From assembly GCA_051251915.1 (NCBI GenBank), contig JBPOGF010000004.1, positions 43,188 to 107,187 of the forward strand: a stretch of DNA of 64,000 nucleotides, written 5' to 3'. The DNA comes from Akkermansiaceae bacterium. GTDB lineage: Bacteria; Verrucomicrobiota; Verrucomicrobiia; Verrucomicrobiales; Akkermansiaceae. Positions 9,462 to 23,392 of the stretch are shown here, one piece after another. Position 1 is the first letter of the stretch. Each line of letters starts with the position of its first letter. Under the pieces are notes generated by a model. The model did no database searches and was not told where the DNA came from. It saw only the letters and a program-made list of their open reading frames with translations. Made by a program: the position numbers and the translations under genes.

Positions 9462-10361
9462 ATGGCAAACCTCAGAGACATCCGCCGACGGATTAAGTCG
9501 GTAAAAAACACAGCACAGATCACGCGTGCGATGCAACTTGTTGCTGCGGCTAAGATGAAGAAAGCCCAGGATCAAGCACTCGCAGGCCGTGAGTATGCAG
9601 ACCAGCTCAACCTAGTCCTCGTTAACCTCAAAGAAAACGTTGATGAAGAATCTCACCCTCTGCTTGAAAAGCGTGAAGGTGATAAAACTCTGACCCTTGT
9701 CATTTCTACTGATAAAGGTCTCTGTGGTGGACTTAATGCCAACCTTCTTAAATTAGTAAGAAGAGAGCAGAACGAGAACACTACTTACGCTACAGTCGGA
9801 AAGAAACTCCGCCTTCAGCTAGAGAAAACAGGTGAGCCAATCAAGGCTGATTTCATCGTAGCAGATCCAGTCGCGTTTTCAGAAGCGCGTCCTATCGCTA
9901 AATTCCTCACTGAGCAATTCCTTGAGGGAAATTACGATAAGATTAAAGTCTGCTTCACTAACTTCGTTTCTACATTAACTCAGACTCCTCATTGTTCACA
10001 GCTTCTTCCTATAGAGGCTGACAAACTAGCAGAGAAGCGAGACTATGAAGGTGTAGGTAAAGGAGACGACGTTAAAGAAACAAATCATGATTCAGCAATG
10101 TCTATGGATTACGAGTTTGAGCCAAGCCCAGAGGTGGTGCTCGATACTCTTCTTCCTCAGTATTTAAACTTCCAGATCTATCAGATGATCCTAGAGGCTC
10201 GCGCTTCTGAGCACTCAGCACGTATGGTATCTATGAAGGCTGCTACTGATAATGCGAAGAACATGATCGATGATCTTACCCTTGACTATAACAAGCTTCG
10301 TCAGGCTGCTATTACTGCTGAGCTTCTCGAAATCACTACTGCGATGAAAGCAATGGAGTAG
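9462..10361 (+). CDS. atpG: F0F1 ATP synthase subunit gamma
   Basis: IRRRIKSVKNTAQITRAM, TDKGLCGG, RQAAITAELLEI. Confidence 0.98.
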   Translation: MANLRDIRRRIKSVKNTAQITRAMQLVAAAKMKKAQDQALAGREYADQLNLVLVNLKENVDEESHPLLEKREGDKTLTLVISTDKGLCGGLNANLLKLVRREQNENTTYATVGKKLRLQLEKTGEPIKADFIVADPVAFSEARPIAKFLTEQFLEGNYDKIKVCFTNFVSTLTQTPHCSQLLPIEADKLAEKRDYEGVGKGDDVKETNHDSAMSMDYEFEPSPEVVLDTLLPQYLNFQIYQMILEARASEHSARMVSMKAATDNAKNMIDDLTLDYNKLRQAAITAELLEITTAMKAME

Positions 10362-10400
10362 TAAAAGATTTCAACCCAATTCAACTAACAAAAAATTTAA

Positions 10401-11885
<1,485 letters not shown>

Positions 11886-11893
11886 TTTTAATC

Positions 11894-11923
11894 TAAGGCG
11901 GTGGCTACAGAGTCACCGCCTTA
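11894..11923 (+). promoter_or_regulatory. Intercistronic stem-loop after atpD
   Basis: TAAGGCGGTG / CACCGCCTTA perfect 10-bp stem, extendable with a G-U pair, no U-tract. Confidence 0.6.
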
Positions 11924-11970
11924 AATTAGCCAATCTAAACTGGCAACTAACAATTTAAAACTTCAACTCC

Positions 11971-12375
11971 ATGCTTCAACTAGAAATCGTAACTCCAGAG
12001 AAGAAAATCTTCTCAGACACAGTCACTGACGTTTACCTACCAGGTGCGGATGGTGAGATGGGTGTGCTTGAATTGCACGCAGCTCTCGTCACTGCACTTC
12101 AACCAGGCGAGCTACGCTATGAGAAAGACGGACAAGTTCAAGAGCTAGCGATTGGTTCAGGATTTGCAGAGGTCACTCAGGAAAAGGTATCAGTCCTCAC
12201 AGACTCAGCCTATGGCGAAGACGACATTGATGAAGCAGCAGAAGAGGCAGCTATGAAGCGTGCAGAAGAGAAGCTAGCTAAAGTATCTGATGAAGATGCT
12301 GAAGAAGCGGCTCATCTAGAAACACTCATTGCTACTAATGCAGCAAGACTTCTTCTTAAGCGTAAGAAGAGGTAG
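11971..12375 (+). CDS. atpC: F0F1 ATP synthase subunit epsilon
   Basis: LEIVTPEK, PGADGEMGVLELHA, GFAEV. Confidence 0.96.
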   Translation: MLQLEIVTPEKKIFSDTVTDVYLPGADGEMGVLELHAALVTALQPGELRYEKDGQVQELAIGSGFAEVTQEKVSVLTDSAYGEDDIDEAAEEAAMKRAEEKLAKVSDEDAEEAAHLETLIATNAARLLLKRKKR

Positions 12376-12440
12376 GGCGAAGCCCTTGTCATTGGTCCAT
12401 TGGCAATCGTTAATGGTCTGATAAGATGAAACATTTATAG

Positions 12441-12472
12441 CCCTCAGCAAGGAAACTTGCTGAGGGTTTTTT
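12441..12472 (+). terminator. Intrinsic terminator of the atp operon
   Basis: CCCTCAGCAAG-gaaa-CTTGCTGAGGG followed by TTTTTT. Confidence 0.9.
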
Positions 12473-12517
12473 AGTCTTGTTCAAATATTGAACGAAACCT
12501 AGAGCTATTATGGCAGT

Positions 12518-13846
12518 TTACTGTTGGAGTAATTTTCCTAGATCGGTAGAAGGGTGAAATACGAAGGTATTTCCGTCTTTTTCTTTGGTCAGTAAACCTG
12601 CAGATGCTAATTTTAGTAAATCAGTTCTAGCTGTTTGGTTAGTGATACCATGGCTAGTTTGGTGTGATGCTATGGTGTAAAGTGCATGGCTATTTCTAAC
12701 AGCATGACTTAGAAGCGCTTTCTGTCTGTGATTCCACTTCCTCATCCCTATAAGAGACGTTGATAATTCTAACTGTTGGCGTTGCTTCCTACTGATGTAT
12801 TCGTGTAATGAAGTTACGGATTTATCCAATGTTTCTAGCTGATGGATGATGAAGTAATTTAGATCATTTTCATCAGTTTCGGTGTATAAAAATGCTCTGT
12901 AATACTGGATTGGAGCTTTGAGTAATTCAGATGAAAGCGAGATGTATTCCATCATCCAGTAGCCATGCTTTAGCATACACCAATAAAATAGAGCTCTAGC
13001 GGTTCTTCCATTTCCGTCGTAGAATGGGTGTTCATAAGCTAGCCAAAAATGTAAGATGATAGATCTAATTATAGGGTGTAAGTAACCTTGCATCTCTGGT
13101 GCATTTGCAAAAGCACATAGTTTTTCCATCCTGTCAGGAAGTAGGTCTGCATCTGGAGGAGAGTGCATGATTTCATTAGTTGTTTGATCAACTACTTGGA
13201 TATCCTCGGAAGCAAAGCGATATCTTCCTGAGGCATCTTCTTTAGTCAAAGTGTCTTTGGTCATCAACCGATGAATTTCTAGTATGAGATCTTGCGATAA
13301 TTCTCGATCCTTTAGTTCATGGATTTTCTTCATTGTTAGGAAGTTATTTAGAATCATCTGCTCATCTTTATTCTTTGGCTTAGATTTTCTTCTTAACATT
13401 TCCCCTGCTATTTCTCTAGTTACTGAGGCTCCTTCTAGCTGTGATGATGTTATGGATTCTTCAATAAGTGAGGATATATAGTAACGTTTTGAGTCGATAT
13501 CTACACTATCTGGCTTGTTGTTAGTGCTGAGGGTTCCTCCACATTTCTTATCCAGTTGATGAATAAGTTCAAACATGTGCTGTGTCAGGTAGAAGACAAA
13601 AGGATTATCGTTAGAGTCTTTAAACGGGAGAAGTTGGTAACGACTATTCCTGTGAAACTTAAGAACTGTCCACCAGTCTTCGGAAGACCAATTTTTAGGT
13701 CTATTACGGTATCTTAGTTTATCCCAATGTAGATATTTTTGCGAATCAGGAAGAGCATCAATGGGGGTATTGATATCAGAGCCAAGTTTATTCAGCGTGT
13801 TGGCTAAGAGAGTCTTCCAGTCAGGTGGTGTTTTTGGGTATTTCAT
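12518..13846 (-). CDS. Fic-family protein with internal inhibitory motif and C-terminal wHTH
   Basis: Canonical HPFYDGNGRTAR; upstream SSQLEG matches the (S/T)xxxE(G/N) inhibitory motif; C-terminal GITNQTARTDLLKLASAGLL is HTH-like. Visibly AT-richer than its neighbours. Confidence 0.92.
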   Translation of the reverse strand: MKYPKTPPDWKTLLANTLNKLGSDINTPIDALPDSQKYLHWDKLRYRNRPKNWSSEDWWTVLKFHRNSRYQLLPFKDSNDNPFVFYLTQHMFELIHQLDKKCGGTLSTNNKPDSVDIDSKRYYISSLIEESITSSQLEGASVTREIAGEMLRRKSKPKNKDEQMILNNFLTMKKIHELKDRELSQDLILEIHRLMTKDTLTKEDASGRYRFASEDIQVVDQTTNEIMHSPPDADLLPDRMEKLCAFANAPEMQGYLHPIIRSIILHFWLAYEHPFYDGNGRTARALFYWCMLKHGYWMMEYISLSSELLKAPIQYYRAFLYTETDENDLNYFIIHQLETLDKSVTSLHEYISRKQRQQLELSTSLIGMRKWNHRQKALLSHAVRNSHALYTIASHQTSHGITNQTARTDLLKLASAGLLTKEKDGNTFVFHPSTDLGKLLQQ

Positions 13847-13999
13847 TTCCTAATTTAGTAGTAATTAGGAGTAAATTAGCAGTTTAGCTATTTGCAGGCA
13901 AGCATTTCCTAATTTAGTAGTAATTAGGAGTAAATTAGTAGTTGGTTCGGCAGATGCAGATTACTACTAATTTAGTATTAATTAGGAGGTAATTAGGAG
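13844..13999. repeat. Three direct repeats (about 36 bp, period 58-59), each with a CCTAATT-N7-AATTAGG palindrome
   Basis: CATTTCCTAATTTAGTAGTAATTAGGAGTAAATTAG is identical at 13844 and 13903, with a degenerate copy from about 13961. It sits directly upstream of the Fic start codon. Confidence 0.9.
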
Positions 14000-14041
14000 T
14001 TGTTCTAGATTATGCTGCTATTACTAGGCTAGCAAAACGAT

Positions 14042-16315
14042 CTAAACTATTTGTAACTCGTAGTCTTTGGTGAGTTGTAGGTGGAGGGTGGTGTCTTTTA
14101 GGGTGGGGTGGGTTACTAGGTGTTGGGAGAGTGAGGTGGTGATGAAGTGGTCTATCTTGCGCTGTAGTGGACGTGCTCCGTATTTGGGGTCGAAGCCTTC
14201 TTTTGCGAGGTGGGTGATGAGGTCTTGGCTGTAGGTGAGGCTGATGTTGCGGTCACGGAGTCCTTCGCGTTGGTTGAGTTCTGTTAGTTCTTTTCTCGCT
14301 ATTTTCTCTATGAGTGGTTGGTCTAGTGCGTTGAAGTAGATGACTTGGTCTAGACGATTGAAGAATTCTGGGCGGAAGAATTTTTTGACTACTGATGTGT
14401 CAACGCTGGTAGATGGGCTATTGGCTTCATTGCCAAATCCGATGTTGTTAGCGAGACCAGCACCTAGGTTAGAGGTCATGATGATGATGGTGCTGTTGAA
14501 GTAGGTGCGGCGTCCGAAGGAGTCTGTTAGGCGCCCTTCGTCGAAGACATTGAGTAGGATGTCGAATACTTCATCGGCAGCTTTTTCAACTTCGTCTAGT
14601 AGTAGTATGGTGAATGGATTTGAGCGGATCTTGCGGATCATTTCTGATGGCTTGCCGCGTAGCTGGGGGTGACCTAGTAGTCTGGTGGCTGCATCGTAGC
14701 CGGCGTATTCGCTCATGTCTAAGCGGATCAAGCGGTCTTTTTCTACTTTTCCTGAGAAGAGCAGATTTCCGAGTGCTCGGACGATAGCTGTCTTTCCTAC
14801 GCCAGTAGGTCCGCAGCAGAGGAAGACACCTAGTGGGCGAGATGGATCATTCATGCCAGCTTTGAAGCGTGAGAGCATGTTGGAGATGACGTTGACTACG
14901 GGTTCTTGACCTAGGACTTGGTTGTTGAGTGTTTGGCGGATTTCTGAGGGCGCTAGGCTTAGCTCGTCATTGAGAAATTCTAGCGGGAGTCCAGTATGCT
15001 TGCTAAAGGTGAGCCAGACTAGATCTGTATCTACTGTGGAGCTGTTAGAGCGCTGGGATTCTTCTTTGAGCCCATCCATGAAATGCATGACCTTGCCGGG
15101 GAAGGAGTCATAGGGTTGGAAGCGTTTAAAGAGTTGGTGGACTATGTCTAGGGCTTCTGGGGCGAAGCTGACTTTGTCTTGCTGGAGTGCTGCGTCTGCG
15201 TAGCGTGCTAGGATTCTTTTGGTTTGTTCTTCAGTGAAGGTTGGGAGTTGGAGCACTTGGAATTGATCGATGAGTCCGGGGAGTAGTCGGTCACAGGCTT
15301 CTAGTTCTTCTGGTGTGGCTTCTACTACAATGCGGAGTTCTTGATTCTGAATGTAGGGGAGCATGAAGGCAGCAATACTGGACTCTGCTGTTTGGCCTCC
15401 TAGTTTGAGCAGCTCTTGGAGGTTTTCTATGAATAGGGTTCCTTGGAAGTTTGCGAGGTCTGCTACGGCATACTCGAAACGTTCTTCCCACTGACCTAGG
15501 TAGCGCATTCCTGAGATGATGCGTCCTGCGTTGGTGGTCCAGAAGAGTTGTTTTTTCTTGCTGTGTTTACTTTTATTCTTCTGTTGTTTGAGCTCTGCAC
15601 GTCTTGCGGCTTCTGTCAAAAGTGATGTTTTTCCACTTCCTGTATTTCCTACGAGAAGGATGCTGTTAGATTCTGCTGAGAGCATGGTTTCTAGCCAGTG
15701 CATTTCATGGTCTCGTTCCCAGGTTCGCTTGGTTTTCTGTGATGTGGTTTTGCTGATGTGGTCGGCAAATTGAGCGAGGCTTTTGACGCAGTCTGTGTCT
15801 TCGTAATGTGAGGTGGATAGTTCTTTGAAGGTGGTGATTATTTCATGGAGTTCAATATGGCTGGGTGGGAGATAGCGGGAGAGTTCTTGGGGGCTTAGAC
15901 CTTGGGCGAAGGATCTTACGTAATGGGTAGCGAGTTCTTCAAATCCTTTTTCATCGTGGTATTCGAAGCTGAGATCCATAGTGGGGATGAAGGCGGTGGG
16001 GAGTCCGCTGTCACGCTCTCCTAGTATGCAGGGGAGGTTGAGCAGGGTGGAGTCTTTGCTAGCATAGGTGCGGCGGTTTTCTTGGTATTCCGCGATGACT
16101 TTTACTTTTAGCTGGGTGAGTCTAGGCTTGAGGAAGTCGCCTTCTGGTAAGAAGTCATTTTTATGGGCGTATTGGAGGTAATCTTTGATTTGCTGTAATG
16201 CTTGTTTCCGTGATTTAGAAACAGCAATTACCTCAGAGTCATCTAGCAGGCATGCGGTGTGCAAGCCATTGTGATCTTGCCAAATAGCGGCTTGGTGTCG
16301 TTCTACTTTAGCCAT
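14042..16315 (-). CDS. ClpA/B-like double AAA+ ATPase (paralogue 3, no C-terminal extension)
   Basis: D1 GNTGSGKT; D2 GPTGVGKT, RLDMSEY, LLLDEVEKA, FRPEFFNRLD, YGARPLQR; NNIGF loop. Confidence 0.9.
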   Translation of the reverse strand: MAKVERHQAAIWQDHNGLHTACLLDDSEVIAVSKSRKQALQQIKDYLQYAHKNDFLPEGDFLKPRLTQLKVKVIAEYQENRRTYASKDSTLLNLPCILGERDSGLPTAFIPTMDLSFEYHDEKGFEELATHYVRSFAQGLSPQELSRYLPPSHIELHEIITTFKELSTSHYEDTDCVKSLAQFADHISKTTSQKTKRTWERDHEMHWLETMLSAESNSILLVGNTGSGKTSLLTEAARRAELKQQKNKSKHSKKKQLFWTTNAGRIISGMRYLGQWEERFEYAVADLANFQGTLFIENLQELLKLGGQTAESSIAAFMLPYIQNQELRIVVEATPEELEACDRLLPGLIDQFQVLQLPTFTEEQTKRILARYADAALQQDKVSFAPEALDIVHQLFKRFQPYDSFPGKVMHFMDGLKEESQRSNSSTVDTDLVWLTFSKHTGLPLEFLNDELSLAPSEIRQTLNNQVLGQEPVVNVISNMLSRFKAGMNDPSRPLGVFLCCGPTGVGKTAIVRALGNLLFSGKVEKDRLIRLDMSEYAGYDAATRLLGHPQLRGKPSEMIRKIRSNPFTILLLDEVEKAADEVFDILLNVFDEGRLTDSFGRRTYFNSTIIIMTSNLGAGLANNIGFGNEANSPSTSVDTSVVKKFFRPEFFNRLDQVIYFNALDQPLIEKIARKELTELNQREGLRDRNISLTYSQDLITHLAKEGFDPKYGARPLQRKIDHFITTSLSQHLVTHPTLKDTTLHLQLTKDYELQIV

Positions 16316-19300
16316 GGTTCGGAAGAAGAAGGTTTGAGATTTCAGTGAGTTCTGGAGCTGTGGGGAGGAGCGGGGTGATGAGGCTCCATAGATTGTAGTT
16401 TCTGTCTGTGATGAGTCCTGTGCGAAGATCTAGGGTGTGGCTGAAAGTTTGCAGGCGATGGATGAATTCACTACGATGTTGCTCAGTGCTTTCTTGGAAT
16501 TGGTAGATGTGCTGTGCTGCCTTTAATTGAATACCGACTAGGTATTTCATGAGTTTTTGCCCAGCGAGTGCTTCGAATTGATAGTGATTGGTTTTCTTTT
16601 TATCGGTCCATTTTCCATCAGGGAAGCTAGTTGTATAGGTTTCTTGATTCCATGTAGGTCCATCTAGAGCGAGGATGACAGTTTCTATATTCAGGTTCTT
16701 TTGTTCTAACAGAAAGTGGATATGGTTGATTTTGTTGATGAGGTTTTCAGCGGAATAGGCGAGGTAGGTTTGGATTTCGCCAGTCTCGGCTAGTTCGTTG
16801 ATCCATTGGCTTGGATTGCTCATCTGGCTGATTTTCTCTAGTGCATTACTTTGCGTTTCTGGGCTGATGCGGACTCTGGTGGAACGGGTTCCAAACCTTG
16901 GTGGGATATCAGTTTTGAAACGCGGGTTGAGCGCTATTTCGTGTTGTGATTGGAGTCTTTGCTGAAGAGTTTTTAGGGAGTTAATTTCTTCAGCTAGCTC
17001 GTAGTAGGGGAGCTTGGATTTGAAGTCGCCGTCTTGTTCACCTAGTAGCTGGAGTCTTTCTTCAGCGCGGTCCATAAAGTCATCACTGCATTCTAAGAGA
17101 GTGAGAGCGTGGTCAGGAGAAATGTCCGAGAAGCCAATGTATTCACGCGTTCTCGCGGTGAATGTCTGGGCTGTGATCTTAGGTGCATTGTTCTGGTCTA
17201 GGCTGACGGTGAGGGTGCTCAAGGCGCTGGGTTTGAACTTCATGAGTGCGTCAGCTAGTGGCTGGACTAGGTAGTTTTCTACTGCTCGGCGGAGTGTTCT
17301 AGCTCCGTATTCTGGGTCGAATCCGTGATCAGTGAGCATTTCATAGACTGGAGGCTCTATCTCTAGTGTGAGCTTGCGCTGGGTGACGCCAAATCGCTTG
17401 AGTGCTTTCTGTGCTAGCCGCTGGACTAGTCCCTGGATGTGGTTGCGGTCTAGGCGGTGGAAGGGGACGATGCGGTCTAGGCGATTGAAAAACTCTGGAC
17501 GGAAAAATTTCTCAGCTGCTTGAGTGTAGATGTGGTCTTGCTGTTCTTGGTTTTGCTCGGAGCTAAAGCCCATGTGGCTAGCGTTTGCTGCTGATCCTAG
17601 GTTGGAGGTGAGAATGATGAGGGTGTTACTAAAGTCTGCAGTCTGTCCAGCAGCGTCTGTTAGGCGAGCCTCGCCTAGGACTTGGAGGAGGAGGTCGAAG
17701 ACGCTGGGGTGGGCTTTTTCTATCTCATCAAATAGGACGACGGTGTATGGCTGACGTTTGATGGCGGAGGTGAGTATACCGTGAGGGCGTGCCTCAGTGC
17801 CTATGAGACGAGCGGCGGCGTCTGCTCCGACGTATTCGTTCATGTCGATCCGGAGTAGACGTTCTTCTGTCTCGAAAACGTAGCTGGCTAGAGCTTTGGC
17901 GCATTCGGTTTTCCCTACGCCTGTGGGTCCTAGAAAGAGTAGGCTAGCGAGTGGGCGACTGGGGTCATTGAGCTGGCTCTTGGTGAGGGTGATGGCATTC
18001 ACCATGGCATCGATAGCGGCTTGTTGTCCTACGATGTGCTGATTGAAATAGAGTATGGGCGTGTCATCTGGGTTGTTGTTAGTTTCGATCATTCGCCATG
18101 AGATTCCTGATTTGGCTTTGAAGTGATCTACTGCATTTTTTTCGGTGATTTCTGTGCTCTGGGAAGCGAGCTGCATGAGTGCATCTGCTCCTTTTCCGGG
18201 GAATGAGCGTGAGCGGACGTAGCGCTGCTGGAGTTGCATGATCTTGGGGATGACGCCGGGGGCGAAGGTGCAGTTTTTCTCAGTCTCTAGCATTTGCATC
18301 ACTCGGATGAGGATGCGCTGGGTCTCATCATCACTAGGTTCACGAATGGGGATGATCTGGAAATAATCGGTGAATCCACGGTCGATCTCTTTGAGCTTTC
18401 TCCAGGCTTCTGGAGTGGCTTCGGCGATGATGCGTGGTGGATTTTTTTCGAGTTGAGCCTTGAGCAGGTTTCCGATGCTAAGGTCACTACTGCTAGATTT
18501 TCCAGCCTGGAAGAGTCCTAGAAGGTCATCGAAGTAGGCTACGTGGTTTTTCTTAGTAATGTGGGTAATGATGGCTAGAAAACGTTCTTCCCACTGACCT
18601 ACATAAGACATCCCTGAGACCATGCGTTGAGGATTGAGCAGCCAGAACTGCTCGTCTAGCTTGTGGCGCTCGTCGTGTCGCTTGGCGATGAGTTCATGAA
18701 TGATGGCGGTCTTGCCTACTTGGCTGGGACCGATGAGGACTACGGGGCGGAGGAGCTGTGTCTGATCAAAGAGTGATGCTATTTCACCGACTAGGGTCTC
18801 TCGCATGACAGCACGTTTGATTTGCTGGGGATAGAGGCGGTTGATGCAGCGTCCTATCCGTTCTAGCTCGGAGGCGCCGTTAAGTTTCTCAGTGCTACCT
18901 AGGCTGGCGAAAAACTGGGAGCCTTGGTTAGGGTCAAGCTTCTGCTGGATGTTGTTTTCAATGTCGATGTAGCTGAGGTTGTAGTTCTGAGCATTGGCTA
19001 TTTCTTCGGGCTGAGCTTTTCCTTCTTCGCGTTCTTTCTTGCGATAGTATTTAGTAAGTATGGTGGTAGCTCGTTCTTGGATCTGGTCACCACGAAGGAG
19101 CTCGAAACTGACTTCTGGTTGCTTGGGGCAGTAGGCTATACGTCTTTCTAGTGCGGAGAAAACCACGAAGAAAAACTTACCTCTGAAGGTTTGTTTCTTA
19201 AGTCGGAGTTCTAGCTTTAGCAGATGCCGGCTTAGCTCTGGGCTGTAGGAGAGAGTGGTGAGCTCGCTGTGGTTTTGCTTTTTTACTAGAGCTGCAATGT

Positions 19301-19460
19301 AGCCGCGGAGGTTCTGAGTAAGACGCTCTGTGGCGCGGTCTTCACGGAGGTCACTGGCGGTGATCTCTTGATTGAAAATAGGGGAGACTGAATAGTAGGG
19401 ATCTGCGTCACCGTCTATGATTTTCTCTATTAGGATGGGTATGGAAAGTTGAGTCAGCAT
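16308..19460 (-). CDS. ClpA/B-like double AAA+ ATPase (paralogue 2, C-terminal extension of about 290 aa)
   Basis: D1 GPSQVGKT; D2 GPTGVGKT, RIDMNEY, VLFDEIEKAH, FRPEFFNRLD, YGARTLRR; HMGF loop; C-terminal TLDLRTG. Confidence 0.9.
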   Translation of the reverse strand: MLTQLSIPILIEKIIDGDADPYYSVSPIFNQEITASDLREDRATERLTQNLRGYIAALVKKQNHSELTTLSYSPELSRHLLKLELRLKKQTFRGKFFFVVFSALERRIAYCPKQPEVSFELLRGDQIQERATTILTKYYRKKEREEGKAQPEEIANAQNYNLSYIDIENNIQQKLDPNQGSQFFASLGSTEKLNGASELERIGRCINRLYPQQIKRAVMRETLVGEIASLFDQTQLLRPVVLIGPSQVGKTAIIHELIAKRHDERHKLDEQFWLLNPQRMVSGMSYVGQWEERFLAIITHITKKNHVAYFDDLLGLFQAGKSSSSDLSIGNLLKAQLEKNPPRIIAEATPEAWRKLKEIDRGFTDYFQIIPIREPSDDETQRILIRVMQMLETEKNCTFAPGVIPKIMQLQQRYVRSRSFPGKGADALMQLASQSTEITEKNAVDHFKAKSGISWRMIETNNNPDDTPILYFNQHIVGQQAAIDAMVNAITLTKSQLNDPSRPLASLLFLGPTGVGKTECAKALASYVFETEERLLRIDMNEYVGADAAARLIGTEARPHGILTSAIKRQPYTVVLFDEIEKAHPSVFDLLLQVLGEARLTDAAGQTADFSNTLIILTSNLGSAANASHMGFSSEQNQEQQDHIYTQAAEKFFRPEFFNRLDRIVPFHRLDRNHIQGLVQRLAQKALKRFGVTQRKLTLEIEPPVYEMLTDHGFDPEYGARTLRRAVENYLVQPLADALMKFKPSALSTLTVSLDQNNAPKITAQTFTARTREYIGFSDISPDHALTLLECSDDFMDRAEERLQLLGEQDGDFKSKLPYYELAEEINSLKTLQQRLQSQHEIALNPRFKTDIPPRFGTRSTRVRISPETQSNALEKISQMSNPSQWINELAETGEIQTYLAYSAENLINKINHIHFLLEQKNLNIETVILALDGPTWNQETYTTSFPDGKWTDKKKTNHYQFEALAGQKLMKYLVGIQLKAAQHIYQFQESTEQHRSEFIHRLQTFSHTLDLRTGLITDRNYNLWSLITPLLPTAPELTEISNLLLPNHG

Positions 19461-19463
19461 CGG

Positions 19464-22400
19464 TTAATCGAGCATGTTGTTAGTTTCCTTAAGCAGTGTG
19501 TCGTTGAGGAGTTTATCCAGTGTGGATATGGAGAAGGGGAGGATTCCTTTTTCTTCTAACCATGTATCACGGTAGCTGCCCTCGAAGAAAAATTCTCTAC
19601 GAACGGCTATTTTCTTAAGATCTAGTTTAGCCTCCAGTTCTTCTACAGGAATGCGGAATTTCTTGAGCGAGCCACTGTGGGTGCTGATGTAGCAACGTTG
19701 TTTGTCTTTGTCTTCTGTATGGTAAACGTGGAGTCCGTGTTCATTGCGAAGTAGGAGTTCTGCTTCTGTGTGCTGGACGTGGAGAGCTATTCCTTTGAGG
19801 GGTTTGAGCTTTCGAGTGCCGACTTTATCACTGAGCATTTCTGCAAATTCTTCTAGGCTTACAATTTCCGGGGTGATGAATTCATGTTCGTTGCCATCTT
19901 CATCTAGGTCTTTTACTTTGAGTTCTTTGGTAGGTTTTCTGTAGATGAGTCCTAGCTTACATTTGAAATTTTTACCTGTTAGCAGTGTGGTGTATGTTTG
20001 CTGTAACTTGGTCATCCACTCGAGTGAATCTACTTGCATGTAGAGGATGATTTCATCATCGAGATTGGAATAGACACTGTAGATCTCTGTGATGAGACGG
20101 AGTGCGTCATGTCTGGTAAATGGGCTGTGTTTCTGCTGGGCGTCCAGATCAGAGTTTTGGAAGGATTTTACGAGTAAGTCTTCTTCCCATTGGGTTGTTT
20201 TAGTGAGGGCTTGAGTTACTTCGTTGAGGCTTGTGGTGAGTGATTCCTTGCGAGGGGTGTTCTCTGGATCAAATTCTGTGAAGACGCTGTCTAGTGATTG
20301 CTTCCTACGCTTTTGTTGTTTGAGCTTTTTAGCCTTTAGTTGATTCATCCTGCGTTCGAGTCTAGCTAGCTCGCTTTTTAGCTCACGTAGCATGGAGCTG
20401 TGGTTTAGCTTGTAGATGAGACGTCTTACTTTAGCGGCTTCGTTTAGTTGTGGATAGCTGTAGGTTTTTTTACTGGAGTGGTGAGGTTCGTATGAGACTA
20501 GCGCTTGAGCTTGGTTCTGTTCATCAGCTGAGACGTTGATGGTGCCATTTTGCTTGGTGTTGTTGATGATGAATTCAGCAACGGGGAGAAGAATGTGTGT
20601 CTCGATAGCTCGCTTGAGTGGACGTGCGCCGTAGCGGGGGTCGTGGCTGTTACGGATGACTTGGTCTAGATATTCAGGGTCTACTTGGATGTCTAGACCT
20701 TGGTGGTGGAGACCATCTCGCTTGGATGCTAGCTGGAGCTCGCGCTGGGCTATTTTTCTAACGGAATCTAGGCTGAGAGCCTGGAAGGGGACGATGCGGT
20801 CGATGCGATTGAAGAACTCTGGGCGGACGCGTTCTTTGACAGCATCAATGAAGTGTTGCTCAGCGAGGACTGAGTCTTCGAGATCATTGGCTAGGAATCC
20901 CATGTTAGAATTTCCAAAGGTGCTGGCTCCTAGGTTGGAGGTCATGATGATGACGGCATTGCTGAAGTCTGCTAAGCGTCCTGCTCCATCAGTCAGACGA
21001 CCTTCGCCTAGGACTTGGAGGAAGAGGTCATAGACTTCTGGTGCTGCTTTCTCAAATTCATCTAGGAGGATGACGGAGAAGGGTTGGTCACGGACGGTGG
21101 CGGTGAGGATGCCTTCGCCCTGGGAAAAGCTATCGCTCACTAGGCGCTGGGCTGAGTGTGGTGAGCTGTATTCGCTCATGTCGAAACGGACAATGCGCTC
21201 CTTTGACCCGTAGAGGAATTCTGCTAGGGACTTGGCTAGTTCGGTTTTGCCTACTCCAGTAGGTCCTATGAACATGAATGTAGCGAGGGGTTTCTTGGGT
21301 CTCGTGAGTCTGGTTTTGACCGTAGCGAGCATCTTGGTGACTACTTCTATGCCGGCGTCTTGAGCCATCACTCGTTGGGTAAACCATTCAGTGATTTCGG
21401 AGGGGGTGAAAATGATATCATCATCCAGAATGAGTTTGGGGAGACCGGTCTCCTTGGAGAAAACTTCTACGATGTCAGAGCGCGATATTTTCCTGTCGGA
21501 ATGTTGTTTGATGAGGCTTTCTAAGAATTGGCAGGGCTTCCCGGGGTAGGCTGAGTAGCTCATGTAGCGGCGGTGAAGCGCGTCAATGTTGTGAATCAGG
21601 TCATGCTGTTCCTCTGAGCTGTGTTTGCTGTTAGAGGCATCTGTTAGATATTGATTTCCTACTTTAAGCAGGATGTTTAGAGCTTGGTCAGGTGTTGGCT
21701 CAGCGATGGTGACGCGGTTAAATGCATCGAGAATTTTTGGGTCGTGAGCTTCCAGTGCGCTGAGTTGTTCCTCAGTGCATTCAGCAATTACGATGAGGTC
21801 TCCACGCATCATGTAGGGGCGGAGGTAGCTGGCGATGCTTTCTGAACTGCTGGAGGATTGACCTACTTGCATGAGCTCGAAGAGATTGCCAATGAAGAGG
21901 ATACTTTTCTCTTCTGCGAGTTCTGAGACCATGTCGTCGCAACGTTTCTGCCACATGCCGAATCCTGTTTGTCCCGCTACGATTTGGGATCCGCTAGATT
22001 TCCAGAGTTTAGGAAGGTGTTTTGATTCTGAACGTAGCATTTCTTCTACGATAGCAGTTTTTCCTACTCCGCTAGGTCCTACGAGAAGTGCGCTGAAGGG
22101 ATTTTTTCCTGTGAGGCATTCTAGTAGGTTTGTGACCTCAGTGGTGCGCTCATAAGCTTGGCGCATATCACCAGTATTCATTTGGCAGGCGACTTCTTTT
22201 AGTATAGTTTTCTGATCTGTTTGATCATCGTAGTTCACCTTGTAGTATTCTAGAGCTGTGTAAGGTCTGGGCTTCCAGGGGGTGAGTTCTACTTCTAGAT
22301 CATCTGCTTTTGTGCGCTGGATGAGGGCCATTTCTAGGAGTGACTTGGAGATAGCTCGGCGTTTTACAGCGAAGAGAATTTCCGATTCTATTTTCTCTAA

Positions 22401-22796
22401 CAGCTTGTCATGATTCTGGATGATGACCTCGATCTTTAGAGCGGGGATGTAGACGATGATGTCATTGTTCTCTTGTTCCCATTGAAGATAGGGAAGGTGG
22501 AGAGTGACTGGCTTCTTGAAGCCAATCTGAGCAGATTTAGCAGGTTCGACGACGACGTCGATCGATTTAATTTTGTATTCTGTAGGGACAGATCGCTCGT
22601 GGAAAACTTGGTTGTTTTTCTTTTTAAGCAGCTCGGCAGCAAGTGATTTGAGCTGCTTCTGGACCTTATCAGTTTTGTGACCAAAGGTGCTGAGCTCTGG
22701 GTAGAATAGTAATTCTGACAGCTCTTGGTTTACTCCATTGATAGAACTCTCCAAGGGCTGCTTGATGGACAACACTTCTAGATGGAGATCCTGCAT
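19464..22796 (-). CDS. ClpA/B-like double AAA+ ATPase (paralogue 1) with release-factor-like C-terminal region
   Basis: D1 GPSGVGKT; D2 GPTGVGKT, RFDMSEY, ILLDEFEKA, RPEFFNRID, YGARPLKR; NMGF loop. C-terminal EWMTKLQQTY and GIALHV..AELLLRNEHGLH resemble the PCRF domain. Confidence 0.9.
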   Translation of the reverse strand: MQDLHLEVLSIKQPLESSINGVNQELSELLFYPELSTFGHKTDKVQKQLKSLAAELLKKKNNQVFHERSVPTEYKIKSIDVVVEPAKSAQIGFKKPVTLHLPYLQWEQENNDIIVYIPALKIEVIIQNHDKLLEKIESEILFAVKRRAISKSLLEMALIQRTKADDLEVELTPWKPRPYTALEYYKVNYDDQTDQKTILKEVACQMNTGDMRQAYERTTEVTNLLECLTGKNPFSALLVGPSGVGKTAIVEEMLRSESKHLPKLWKSSGSQIVAGQTGFGMWQKRCDDMVSELAEEKSILFIGNLFELMQVGQSSSSSESIASYLRPYMMRGDLIVIAECTEEQLSALEAHDPKILDAFNRVTIAEPTPDQALNILLKVGNQYLTDASNSKHSSEEQHDLIHNIDALHRRYMSYSAYPGKPCQFLESLIKQHSDRKISRSDIVEVFSKETGLPKLILDDDIIFTPSEITEWFTQRVMAQDAGIEVVTKMLATVKTRLTRPKKPLATFMFIGPTGVGKTELAKSLAEFLYGSKERIVRFDMSEYSSPHSAQRLVSDSFSQGEGILTATVRDQPFSVILLDEFEKAAPEVYDLFLQVLGEGRLTDGAGRLADFSNAVIIMTSNLGASTFGNSNMGFLANDLEDSVLAEQHFIDAVKERVRPEFFNRIDRIVPFQALSLDSVRKIAQRELQLASKRDGLHHQGLDIQVDPEYLDQVIRNSHDPRYGARPLKRAIETHILLPVAEFIINNTKQNGTINVSADEQNQAQALVSYEPHHSSKKTYSYPQLNEAAKVRRLIYKLNHSSMLRELKSELARLERRMNQLKAKKLKQQKRRKQSLDSVFTEFDPENTPRKESLTTSLNEVTQALTKTTQWEEDLLVKSFQNSDLDAQQKHSPFTRHDALRLITEIYSVYSNLDDEIILYMQVDSLEWMTKLQQTYTTLLTGKNFKCKLGLIYRKPTKELKVKDLDEDGNEHEFITPEIVSLEEFAEMLSDKVGTRKLKPLKGIALHVQHTEAELLLRNEHGLHVYHTEDKDKQRCYISTHSGSLKKFRIPVEELEAKLDLKKIAVRREFFFEGSYRDTWLEEKGILPFSISTLDKLLNDTLLKETNNMLD

Positions 22797-22822: not shown

Positions 22823-23392
22823 CTATAGCAAGTCAACGTTGTTGTAGATGGTGCTGCTGGTGAGTGTGGAGTCAGTGCAGCTTAGGGCAGTTTCGAAATC
22901 GTCGCCTGTTAGGAATTCAGGTTCCCAGTTATTCTCTCTTCTTACTATGATGACTTCTTTACGATCTTGAGCGACGAGGATGTATTCCTGTAGGGATGGG
23001 ATACTGGTGTAAGCTAGGAACTTTTCGTTGCGGTCGATGCGCTCGGTGGAGTCAGAAAGAACTTCGAATATTGTAGTGGGCTTTTCTAGGTATAGGGGAT
23101 GATCTCCAGCTTTATCGCAGCTGACTACAACGTCAGGATAGTAGTAACTTTCATTCGAGAGAGTTTTAACCTGAACTTTGACATCATTGATGAATGGGCG
23201 ACAGGGTGATCCTGACAAAGCTTGATTGAGGGATGAAGCAATGTTTAGCGAGATGGTATTATGATTCAGAGTGCCTCCTGACATGGCATAAACGACGCCG
23301 TCTATGTACTCATGTCTAACCTCTGAAACAATTTCTCCCTCCAGATATTCTTCAGGTGTGATGAGAGAGTTTATTTTCAGAGTGGAGCTCAT
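22823..23392 (-). CDS. Uma2 (DUF820) family PD-(D/E)xK endonuclease
   Basis: EEYLEGE..SEVRHEYIDGVVYAMSGGT..H, YYPDVVVSC, IFEVLSDST..IDR.EK, LQEYILVAQD. Confidence 0.93.
   Translation of the reverse strand: MSSTLKINSLITPEEYLEGEIVSEVRHEYIDGVVYAMSGGTLNHNTISLNIASSLNQALSGSPCRPFINDVKVQVKTLSNESYYYPDVVVSCDKAGDHPLYLEKPTTIFEVLSDSTERIDRNEKFLAYTSIPSLQEYILVAQDRKEVIIVRRENNWEPEFLTGDDFETALSCTDSTLTSSTIYNNVDLL

Follow-up and report, generated by a model that had tools for sequence, protein, structure and literature searches.

An invariant beta4 glutamate in the non-canonical first AAA+ domain of three co-operonic ClpC/ClpA-like paralogues from an Akkermansiaceae bacterium

The locus and the D1 motifs of its three proteins

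The window analyzed here is a stretch of 64,000 nucleotides from an Akkermansiaceae bacterium (GenBank assembly GCA_051251915.1, contig JBPOGF010000004.1, positions 43,188 to 107,187 of the forward strand), in which the region 14042–22796 consists of exactly three open reading frames (ORFs), all on the minus strand, encoding paralogous proteins (W1, W2 and W3) with two AAA+ modules each, D1 and D2. W1 (19464..22796; 1110 amino acids, aa) is the type-1 paralogue, which matches Pfam AAA_2 and ClpB_D2-small, falls into clade T1 of the family tree and comprises a novel N-terminal domain, D1, D2 and a release-factor-like C-terminal module. W2 (16308..19460; 1050 aa) and W3 (14042..16315; 757 aa) are assigned by ORF, Pfam and tree to types 2 and 3 (clades T2 and T3), respectively, the latter having no C-terminal module. 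Three nucleotides lie between the stop codon of W1 and the start of W2, and the start of W3 overlaps the end of W2 by 8 nucleotides.

The D2 modules of W1–W3 match Pfam AAA_2 (PF07724; E 1e-38 to 1e-46) and ClpB_D2-small (PF10431; E 1e-13 to 1e-16), and the first P-loop domain matches generic Pfam models alone (AAA_16 and nSTAND3), weakly. The three proteins belong to no named Clp equivalog, because their best NCBIfam scores (297–360 bits) are far below the cut-offs for ClpB and ClpA (993–1417), and their scores against ClpV, ClpG and ClpK (cut-offs 885–1900) are lower still. The same genome also encodes a canonical ClpB and a canonical ClpC, which served as internal references for alignment. 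Residues of D1 are numbered after E. coli ClpB (K212, E279, A328, R331/R332; PMC5319980), and the mapping is firm, as the alignment to the genome's own ClpB contains no insertion or deletion from position 305 to position 340.

All three proteins keep the D1 Walker A motif, namely GPSGVGKT in W1 (aa 240–247; 22056..22079, minus strand, as are all features below), GPSQVGKT in W2 (aa 244–251; 18708..18731) and, from motif location and clade alignment, GNTGSGKT in W3 (aa 223–230; 15626..15649). Both glycines and the lysine are found in 39 of the 40 T1 sequences, the remaining one being a truncated sequence with a gap, and the lysine is present in 120/120 T2 sequences and in 128/128 representatives. 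The Walker B motif is ILFIGN-LFE in W1 (21876..21902; ILFIGN, aa 299–304), where the Walker B aspartate is replaced by glycine and the catalytic glutamate by asparagine; VAYFDD in W2 (aa 307–312; 18525..18542), where the aspartate is retained and the catalytic glutamate is replaced by aspartate; and TLFIEN followed by LQE in W3 (aa 293–298; 15422..15439), where glutamate replaces the aspartate and asparagine the catalytic glutamate. The D1 catalytic glutamate (ClpB E279) is hence absent from W1–W3, which contain GN, DD and EN in place of DE. Both D1 arginine fingers (ClpB R331/R332) are absent as well: the former finger segment is DPKILDAF in W1 (21720..21743), with R331 replaced by D and R332 by A; DRGFTDYF in W2 (18360..18383), with D and Y at these positions and a clade-specific arginine at the ClpB-327 position; and LPGLIDQF in W3 (15260..15283), with D and Q.

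The third departure from canonical D1 is a gained residue. The alanine of the G-A-T-T motif (ClpB A313) is glutamate in W1–W3 and the preceding glycine is alanine or valine, the glutamates being E339 of W1 (strand beta4 IVIAECT; 21780..21782), E347 of W2 (RIIAEAT; 18420..18422) and E332 of W3 (RIVVEAT; 15320..15322). The sensor-1 residue is the second threonine of this motif (T315 in ClpB and T317 in Hsp104; PMC4192545), and it is retained in all three proteins (T341, T349 and T334, respectively). The motif strings given by the initial annotation, which was made by a model from the DNA alone, are all present in W1–W3: the retained D1 Walker A, the Walker B strings ILFIGN, AYFDD and LFIEN, the finger-segment strings ILDAF, FTDYF and LIDQF, and IAECT, IAEAT and VVEAT with glutamate at one shared position in the gapless ClpB alignment. 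Its description of a Gly-to-Glu change in sensor 1 was a mislabel, however, since the change is Ala-to-Glu and lies two residues upstream of an intact sensor-1 threonine. Its view that D1 is catalytically dead in all three paralogues holds as far as the missing Walker B glutamate and R331/R332 are concerned, but is too strong for W2, which has the clade consensus DD with the Mg-ligating aspartate, an acid at the catalytic position and R327.

Conservation and distribution of the family

Searches with the N-terminal halves of W1–W3 as queries retrieved homologues from Verrucomicrobiales, Planctomycetota (Gemmataceae and Pirellulaceae), Acidobacteriota and other groups, which carry only ClpA/ClpC or 'AAA family ATPase' annotations. 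In a maximum-likelihood tree, the clades T1, T2 and T3 are well supported (approximate likelihood-ratio test values of 96–100) beside a few extra lineages, and the split between the trio family and canonical Clp proteins is clean (support 100). We take the clades of W1–W3 to be three ancient groups of orthologues, and in each of them a distinct D1 signature has become fixed. The T1 signature comprises Walker A GPSGVGKT, pore loop AGQTGFGMWQER, Walker B hhhhG[NS]LxE, beta4 AEC-T and finger segment DPxLLDAF; that of T2 comprises GPRQVGKT, SGMSYVGQWExR, hLYFDDLLG, AExTPE and DRGFADLF; and that of T3 comprises GxSGxGKT, GMRYLGQWEER, hLC[IV][ED]NLL[DE], [AV]EAT and LLPGLID, in the same order.

The beta4 glutamate is present in 40/40 T1, 120/120 T2 and 26/26 T3 orthologues and in 128/128 members of an independent set of 50%-identity representatives, that is, in 314/314 clade members overall; it is also found in all 52 genes of 19 loci, 14 of which were newly taken from genome assemblies. 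Its conservation in homologues, the absence of which had been set beforehand as refuting the initial annotation, thus extends to all three clades. A control set of 84 sequences contained two with glutamate at the A313 position, both of which are divergent members of the trio family, and none of the 82 canonical Clp controls that are left has glutamate there (A 68, T 7, S 6, I 1). The controls keep the D1 Walker B residues (D in 81/84, E in 74/84) and the D1 fingers (R in 82/84 and 75/84), and among the family sequences no case was found where the glutamate occurs together with a D1 'DE' or 'RR'. Judged from these counts, the pattern is far beyond chance. Two clade-peripheral sequences are without the beta4 glutamate: P0275, which has a broken P-loop (GK[TS] changed to GRH, with the Walker A lysine and threonine gone), and P0162, a single-gene form with E-D at Walker B.

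The old catalytic positions have clade-specific occupants. The Walker B consensus is G-[NS] in T1, D-D in T2 and [ED]-[NS] in T3; the Mg-ligating aspartate is glycine in 40/40 T1 sequences, and T2 contains D278 in 114/120 and D279 in 118/120, with deep T2 lineages having D-N and no acid at position 282. R331 is replaced by aspartate in 107/120 T2, 25/26 T3 and 21/40 T1 sequences, while an arginine at ClpB-327, four residues before the lost finger, is present in 118/120 T2 sequences (125/128 of the representatives). The sensor-1 threonine is kept in 38/40 T1, 115/120 T2 and 25/26 T3 sequences. Position 282, three residues after the old catalytic glutamate, is acidic in T1 (E in 40/40; W1 E307, 21876–21878) and T3 (D/E in 26/26; W3 aa 301), where the catalytic position is N/S, and is glycine in T2 (118/120; W2 aa 315), where the catalytic position is aspartate. 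This complementary acid after Walker B may mark a carboxylate that has shifted, or it may make a contact at an interface.

The D1 residues invariant in all clades are the P-loop glycine and lysine, the G, W and R of the pore loop, the beta4 glutamate and the proline of the lid motif P-G-K (W2 P421, G422 and K423), which is kept and whose glycine is nearly invariant. In D1, the motif G-x4-G-K-[TS] shows no variation among more than 300 diverse sequences. Within-clade identity is 0.52–0.56 for the D1 large subdomain versus 0.62–0.65 for D2, so D1 is under purifying selection similar to that on D2 and is not decaying, which speaks against 'dead' in the sense of decayed. By this comparison D1 is best described as a remodeled site under selection, rather than a decaying one.

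The gene order T1-T2-T3 is found in Roseimicrobium gellanilyticum (locus L120; 1112, 1095 and 766 aa, with 4-nucleotide overlaps), in an Acidobacteriota metagenome-assembled genome (MAG; L122) and in another metagenomic contig (L123), as well as in 12 of 14 genomic regions from the phylum of the Pirellulaceae MAG and one deltaproteobacterial MAG, mostly with small gaps or overlaps; a Gemmataceae locus contains T1-T2 only. The closest relative (L119, a JGI contig, 10001–19033) has the order T2-T3-T1, and its last gene, T1, is apparently split into products of 293 aa and 832 aa, of which the 832-aa product lacks the N-terminal portion that contains the D1 Walker A. The loci examined share no other gene in the surroundings of the trio, and in none of them is clpP a neighbor. 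Among 151 genomes sampled from the phylum to which the window belongs, the family occurs in this genome alone; it occurs in 14 of 201 sampled genomes of the phylum of the Pirellulaceae MAG, and it forms 367 clusters at 50% identity (E <= 1e-30) among 1.84 billion representatives. This patchy distribution suggests lateral spread of the operon. No description of the trio family, or of glutamate at this D1 position, was found in the literature, and the family appears to be undescribed.

Structure model, D2 and terminal modules

The AlphaFold2 (AF2) model of W2 has a predicted local distance difference test score (pLDDT) of 91 and a predicted template modeling score (pTM) of 0.76, and its best Foldseek matches are the ClpC1-ClpP and ClpC-ClpP complexes (E ~1e-40), followed by ClpB and ClpA, with E values of 1e-35 to 1e-40 overall. 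In the modeled D1, strand beta1 (240–243) is followed by the P-loop and beta3 (307–310) by D311 and D312, while beta4 spans residues 343–348, where E347 is penultimate and T349 caps the helix 350–359. The strand order of AAA+ domains is 5-1-4-3-2, which places beta4 next to the P-loop strand on one side and the Walker B strand on the other, and by strand alternation E347 lies on the same face of beta4 as the sensor-1 residue T349. The carboxylate of E347 is plausibly within reach of Mg2+, the Walker A lysine and threonine and the gamma-phosphate region, as judged from the model.

The D2 modules of W1–W3 are canonical, containing Walker A GPTGVGKT, Walker B hhhDE, TSN, RPEFFNR and GAR, in agreement with the motifs listed for D2 in the initial annotation (Walker A/B, RPEFFNR and GAR). 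The D2 Walker A and B, sensor-1 asparagine, arginine finger and sensor-2 arginine are invariant across the family; the D2 Walker B of W2 is VLFDE (17724..17738), with equivalents at 21057–21071 in W1 and 14591–14605 in W3. The D2 pore loop GYVGY (ClpB 655–659) aligns to a gap in 121–122 of 122 family sequences, the site of this deletion in W2 being 17775–17804 (aa 553–562), with equivalents in W1 and W3. Within D1, conservation is highest in the pore-loop segment (SGMSYVGQWEER in W2; 18582..18617), where G, W and R are invariant in T1–T3. As GYVG is deleted from D2 and the D1 pore loop is the best kept, the gripping loop is missing from the motor ring but present in the ring that lacks canonical catalysis.

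A tripeptide h-G-F/L is found in all three clades (G in 184/186, F/L in nearly all) and represents a putative ClpP loop by alignment: MGF in W1 (20895–20903), MGF in W2 (17565–17573) and IGF in W3 (14435–14443) align with the ClpP-docking LGF of the genome's own ClpC, and clpP is present elsewhere in the genome, on contig C12. The linker between D1 and D2 of W2 is about 36 aa (the D1 match ends near 436 and D2 begins at 473; the corresponding positions in Thermus thermophilus ClpB are 393 and 557), so W2 contains no long M-domain.

The C-terminal module of W1 (19467–20531; aa 756–1110) was modeled with a pLDDT of 90, and its top 42 PDB matches are all class-I release factors (RF2 or RF1; best E 7.8e-7). 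The C-terminal extension of W2/T2 has a predicted secondary-structure pattern similar to that of the T1 module, and the W2 tail (16311–17225) is probably release-factor-like as well. The GGQ motif is absent from 36/36 T1 tails. Pfam searches with the isolated N- and C-terminal regions of W1–W3 gave nothing significant, and BLASTP showed no significant similarity between the tails of W1 and W2 and P0161, a single-gene relative with a Pfam PCRF match (E 6.6e-18), so the link of the W1 tail to release factors is drawn from the fold search. At the other end of the proteins, Clp_N (PF02861), which most canonical Clp matches carry, is not matched by Pfam in W1–W3. No Pfam model significantly matches the shared N-terminal domain of the window proteins (aa 1–190 of W1–W3); in the W2 model this domain contains two beta-beta-beta-alpha repeats, and the N-termini of P0161 and P0162 (aa 14–46) show weak UPF0150 (HicB-like) matches (E 1e-4, under the cut-off).

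The genes on either side of the trio encode a Fic-domain protein (12518–13846; PADLOC SoFic, E 1e-42) and a Uma2-family protein (22823–23392; PDC-S03, E 4e-29), neither of which recurs beside the trio in the other loci examined, and a link of the trio to a conflict island is thus unsupported. An identity as an anti-phage defense system (PADLOC DolB and PDC-M37B) was also rejected, because the match is restricted to the D2 P-loop core (profile positions ~132–300 of 375–390); the genes next to the trio differ from locus to locus among those examined, which likewise leaves a defense reading unsupported. The window shows a strong bias in strand composition: the GC skew of the plus strand is +0.2 to +0.46 wherever genes are read from the minus strand and close to 0 at 6–12 kb, where plus-strand genes lie, so the coding strands are unusually C-rich relative to G.

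Possible roles of the D1 tier

The trio resembles ClpC, ClpC1 and ClpA, its best Foldseek matches, in having two stacked AAA+ modules, a canonical D2 and no long M-domain, and its h-G-F/L tripeptide aligns with the ClpP-docking loop of the genome's own ClpC. Unlike ClpC/ClpA, it contains no Clp_N, lacks the D1 Walker B glutamate and arginine fingers, has gained the beta4 glutamate and lost the D2 GYVG, consists of three co-operonic paralogues instead of one gene and carries a release-factor-like tail on T1; unlike the ClpB/Hsp104 disaggregases, it is without the long coiled-coil M-domain. T1, T2 and T3 are most likely subunit types of a ClpC/ClpA-derived double-ring AAA+ hetero-oligomer encoded by one operon, the heteromer being suggested by synteny and translational coupling.

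Degenerate rings are known in double-ring AAA+ machines, where they are usually read as relics holding the hexamer, and the D2 tier of NSF and the D1 tier of p97 are similar to the case of Pex1/Pex6. Pex1/Pex6 are, like the trio, type-II AAA+ paralogues, and in their heteromer one ring, which lacks many of the residues for hydrolysis, still binds nucleotide and functions in assembly, the other ring being the motor (PMC6862443). The trio may be a functional analogue of this type of degenerate ring, as Walker A is intact, the hydrolysis residues are lost, the partner ring is intact and the overlapping operon points to a heteromer. Pex1/Pex6 differ in being eukaryotic members of the classic Cdc48 clade with two paralogues rather than three, and their degenerate ring is poorly conserved, whereas D1 of the trio is nearly as conserved as D2, with its best pore loop and a gained glutamate.

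A second comparison is offered by engineered variants. ClpB E279A, a 'trap' variant, binds ATP with AAA-1 turnover abolished, and R331 and R332 are essential fingers (PMC5319980), while Hsp104 T317A shows that the sensor-1 threonine is needed for hydrolysis but not for binding (PMC4192545). The trio is like these ClpB and Hsp104 mutants in having neither a catalytic glutamate (N/S in T1 and T3) nor arginine fingers, so that, by analogy, ATP binding without turnover would be the expected default. Unlike them, it keeps sensor 1, adds the beta4 glutamate, changes R331 to aspartate and contains clade-fixed replacements, and its D1 is, on this evidence, an adapted state and not a simple loss. AAA+/STAND switches (DnaA and Apaf-1-type proteins) contain a hhhhDD Walker B and usually show slow, switch-like hydrolysis. 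The T2 D1 Walker B is likewise hhhhDD and D1 weakly matches AAA_16 and nSTAND3, but the trio has no STAND architecture, its fold and context are those of an Hsp100 D1, and deep T2 lineages have D-N. The presence of D-N in these lineages also weakens the candidate explanation that T2 is the active subunit by virtue of DD.

The reading we favor, with about even confidence in it, is that D1 is a stably ATP-loaded, non- or slowly hydrolyzing tier for assembly and substrate holding, where the beta4 glutamate replaces the contacts of Walker B with Mg and Walker A, and D2 is the sole motor. D1 would bind Mg-ATP tightly with no or slow hydrolysis; the beta4 glutamate would take over the contacts of the Walker B aspartate with Mg2+ and the Walker A threonine and lysine; the ATP-locked D1 tier would hold the heteromer together and display its conserved pore loops; and the canonical D2 ring would be the only motor. 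Such a takeover would explain the drift of Walker B to clade-specific forms (G-N/S, D-D and E/D-N/S), and it fits the invariant glycine at the position of the replaced aspartate in T1. Double-ring AAA+ machines in which D2 alone is fully active still function (PMC6862443), and ClpAP with an inactive D1 still works (bioRxiv 10.1101/585554).

Three points weigh against an ATP-locked D1. More than 95% of the members of each clade keep the sensor-1 threonine, a hint that D1 may still sense or cleave the gamma-phosphate; T2 retains the acidic pair DD and the near-invariant arginine at 327; and the invariant acid of T1 and T3 three residues past the catalytic position could be a shifted catalytic carboxylate.

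These points lead to a possible, though rather unlikely, alternative, in which D1 has a rebuilt active site and continues to hydrolyze ATP: the beta4 glutamate, or the acid at +3 in T1 and T3, would activate water, and basic residues of the neighboring subunit (T2 R327 or R320, T3 R324, T1 K/R328) would replace the fingers, so that only some interfaces of the hetero-hexamer are competent and D1 acts as a slow, asymmetric timer. The invariance of the glutamate while the Walker B+1 residue varies (N, S or D) looks as if the base had moved, and its place on the sensor-1 face of beta4, the retained sensor-1 threonine, the acid at 282 where 279 is N/S (T1 and T3) with glycine where 279 is D (T2), and the clade-specific conserved arginines in the interface helix and loop all agree with a rebuilt site. 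However, no basic residue at or near the finger position is common to all three clades and R331 is charge-reversed to aspartate; T1 has glycine at the Mg-ligating Walker B aspartate throughout, and the deep T2 lineages with D-N are without the acid at 282. We know of no precedent for a catalytic glutamate at sensor-1 minus 2 in AAA+ proteins, which also counts against a rebuilt hydrolase, and of no characterized AAA+ protein with a carboxylate at this beta4 position.

A bolder form of this idea, which we consider quite improbable, is that the beta4 glutamate represents a new AAA+ active-site architecture, where the Mg2+-ligating, water-activating carboxylate has moved from Walker B to the sensor-1 strand and D1 of an asymmetric hetero-hexamer is a slow timer. 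If so, only certain D1 interfaces would fire, for example T2 sites (D-D, Glu and Thr) with a non-canonical arginine or lysine from the neighbor, and the timer would control the moment of engagement of the D2 motor and the release-factor-like tails with their target, which may be the ribosome.

Slightly lower still stands the proposal that D1 is an empty pseudo-ATPase, where a salt bridge between the glutamate and the Walker A lysine fills the phosphate site and the domain is purely structural, acting as a spacer and a scaffold for the pore loops with no need of nucleotide. The extra carboxylate adjoins the P-loop strand, neither Walker B nor the fingers are kept, and P0275 has lost the lysine and the glutamate together, an observation that fits a Lys-Glu pair and a nucleotide site equally; but the strict G-x4-G-K-[TS] is hard to explain without a bound nucleotide, and the sensor-1 threonine and the lid P-G-K are retained. 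Chance, an artefact of the alignment or the decay of duplicated genes has almost no probability as an explanation of the pattern, given the gapless alignment, the three ancient clades, each conserved, the glutamate counts of 314/314 versus 0/82, the long and intact ORFs and the high conservation of D1.

D1 of the trio thus represents a known theme, the degenerate ring of type-II AAA+ proteins, in a family that is apparently undescribed and in which a Clp motor is combined with a release-factor-like module that is catalytically empty. With the old catalytic positions fixed three ways in three subunit types, the trio is a natural experiment on which features a P-loop site must have if it is to bind, sense or cleave ATP, and on how bacteria build asymmetric AAA+ rings, and W1 E339, W2 E347 and W3 E332 provide precise mutational targets for the family.

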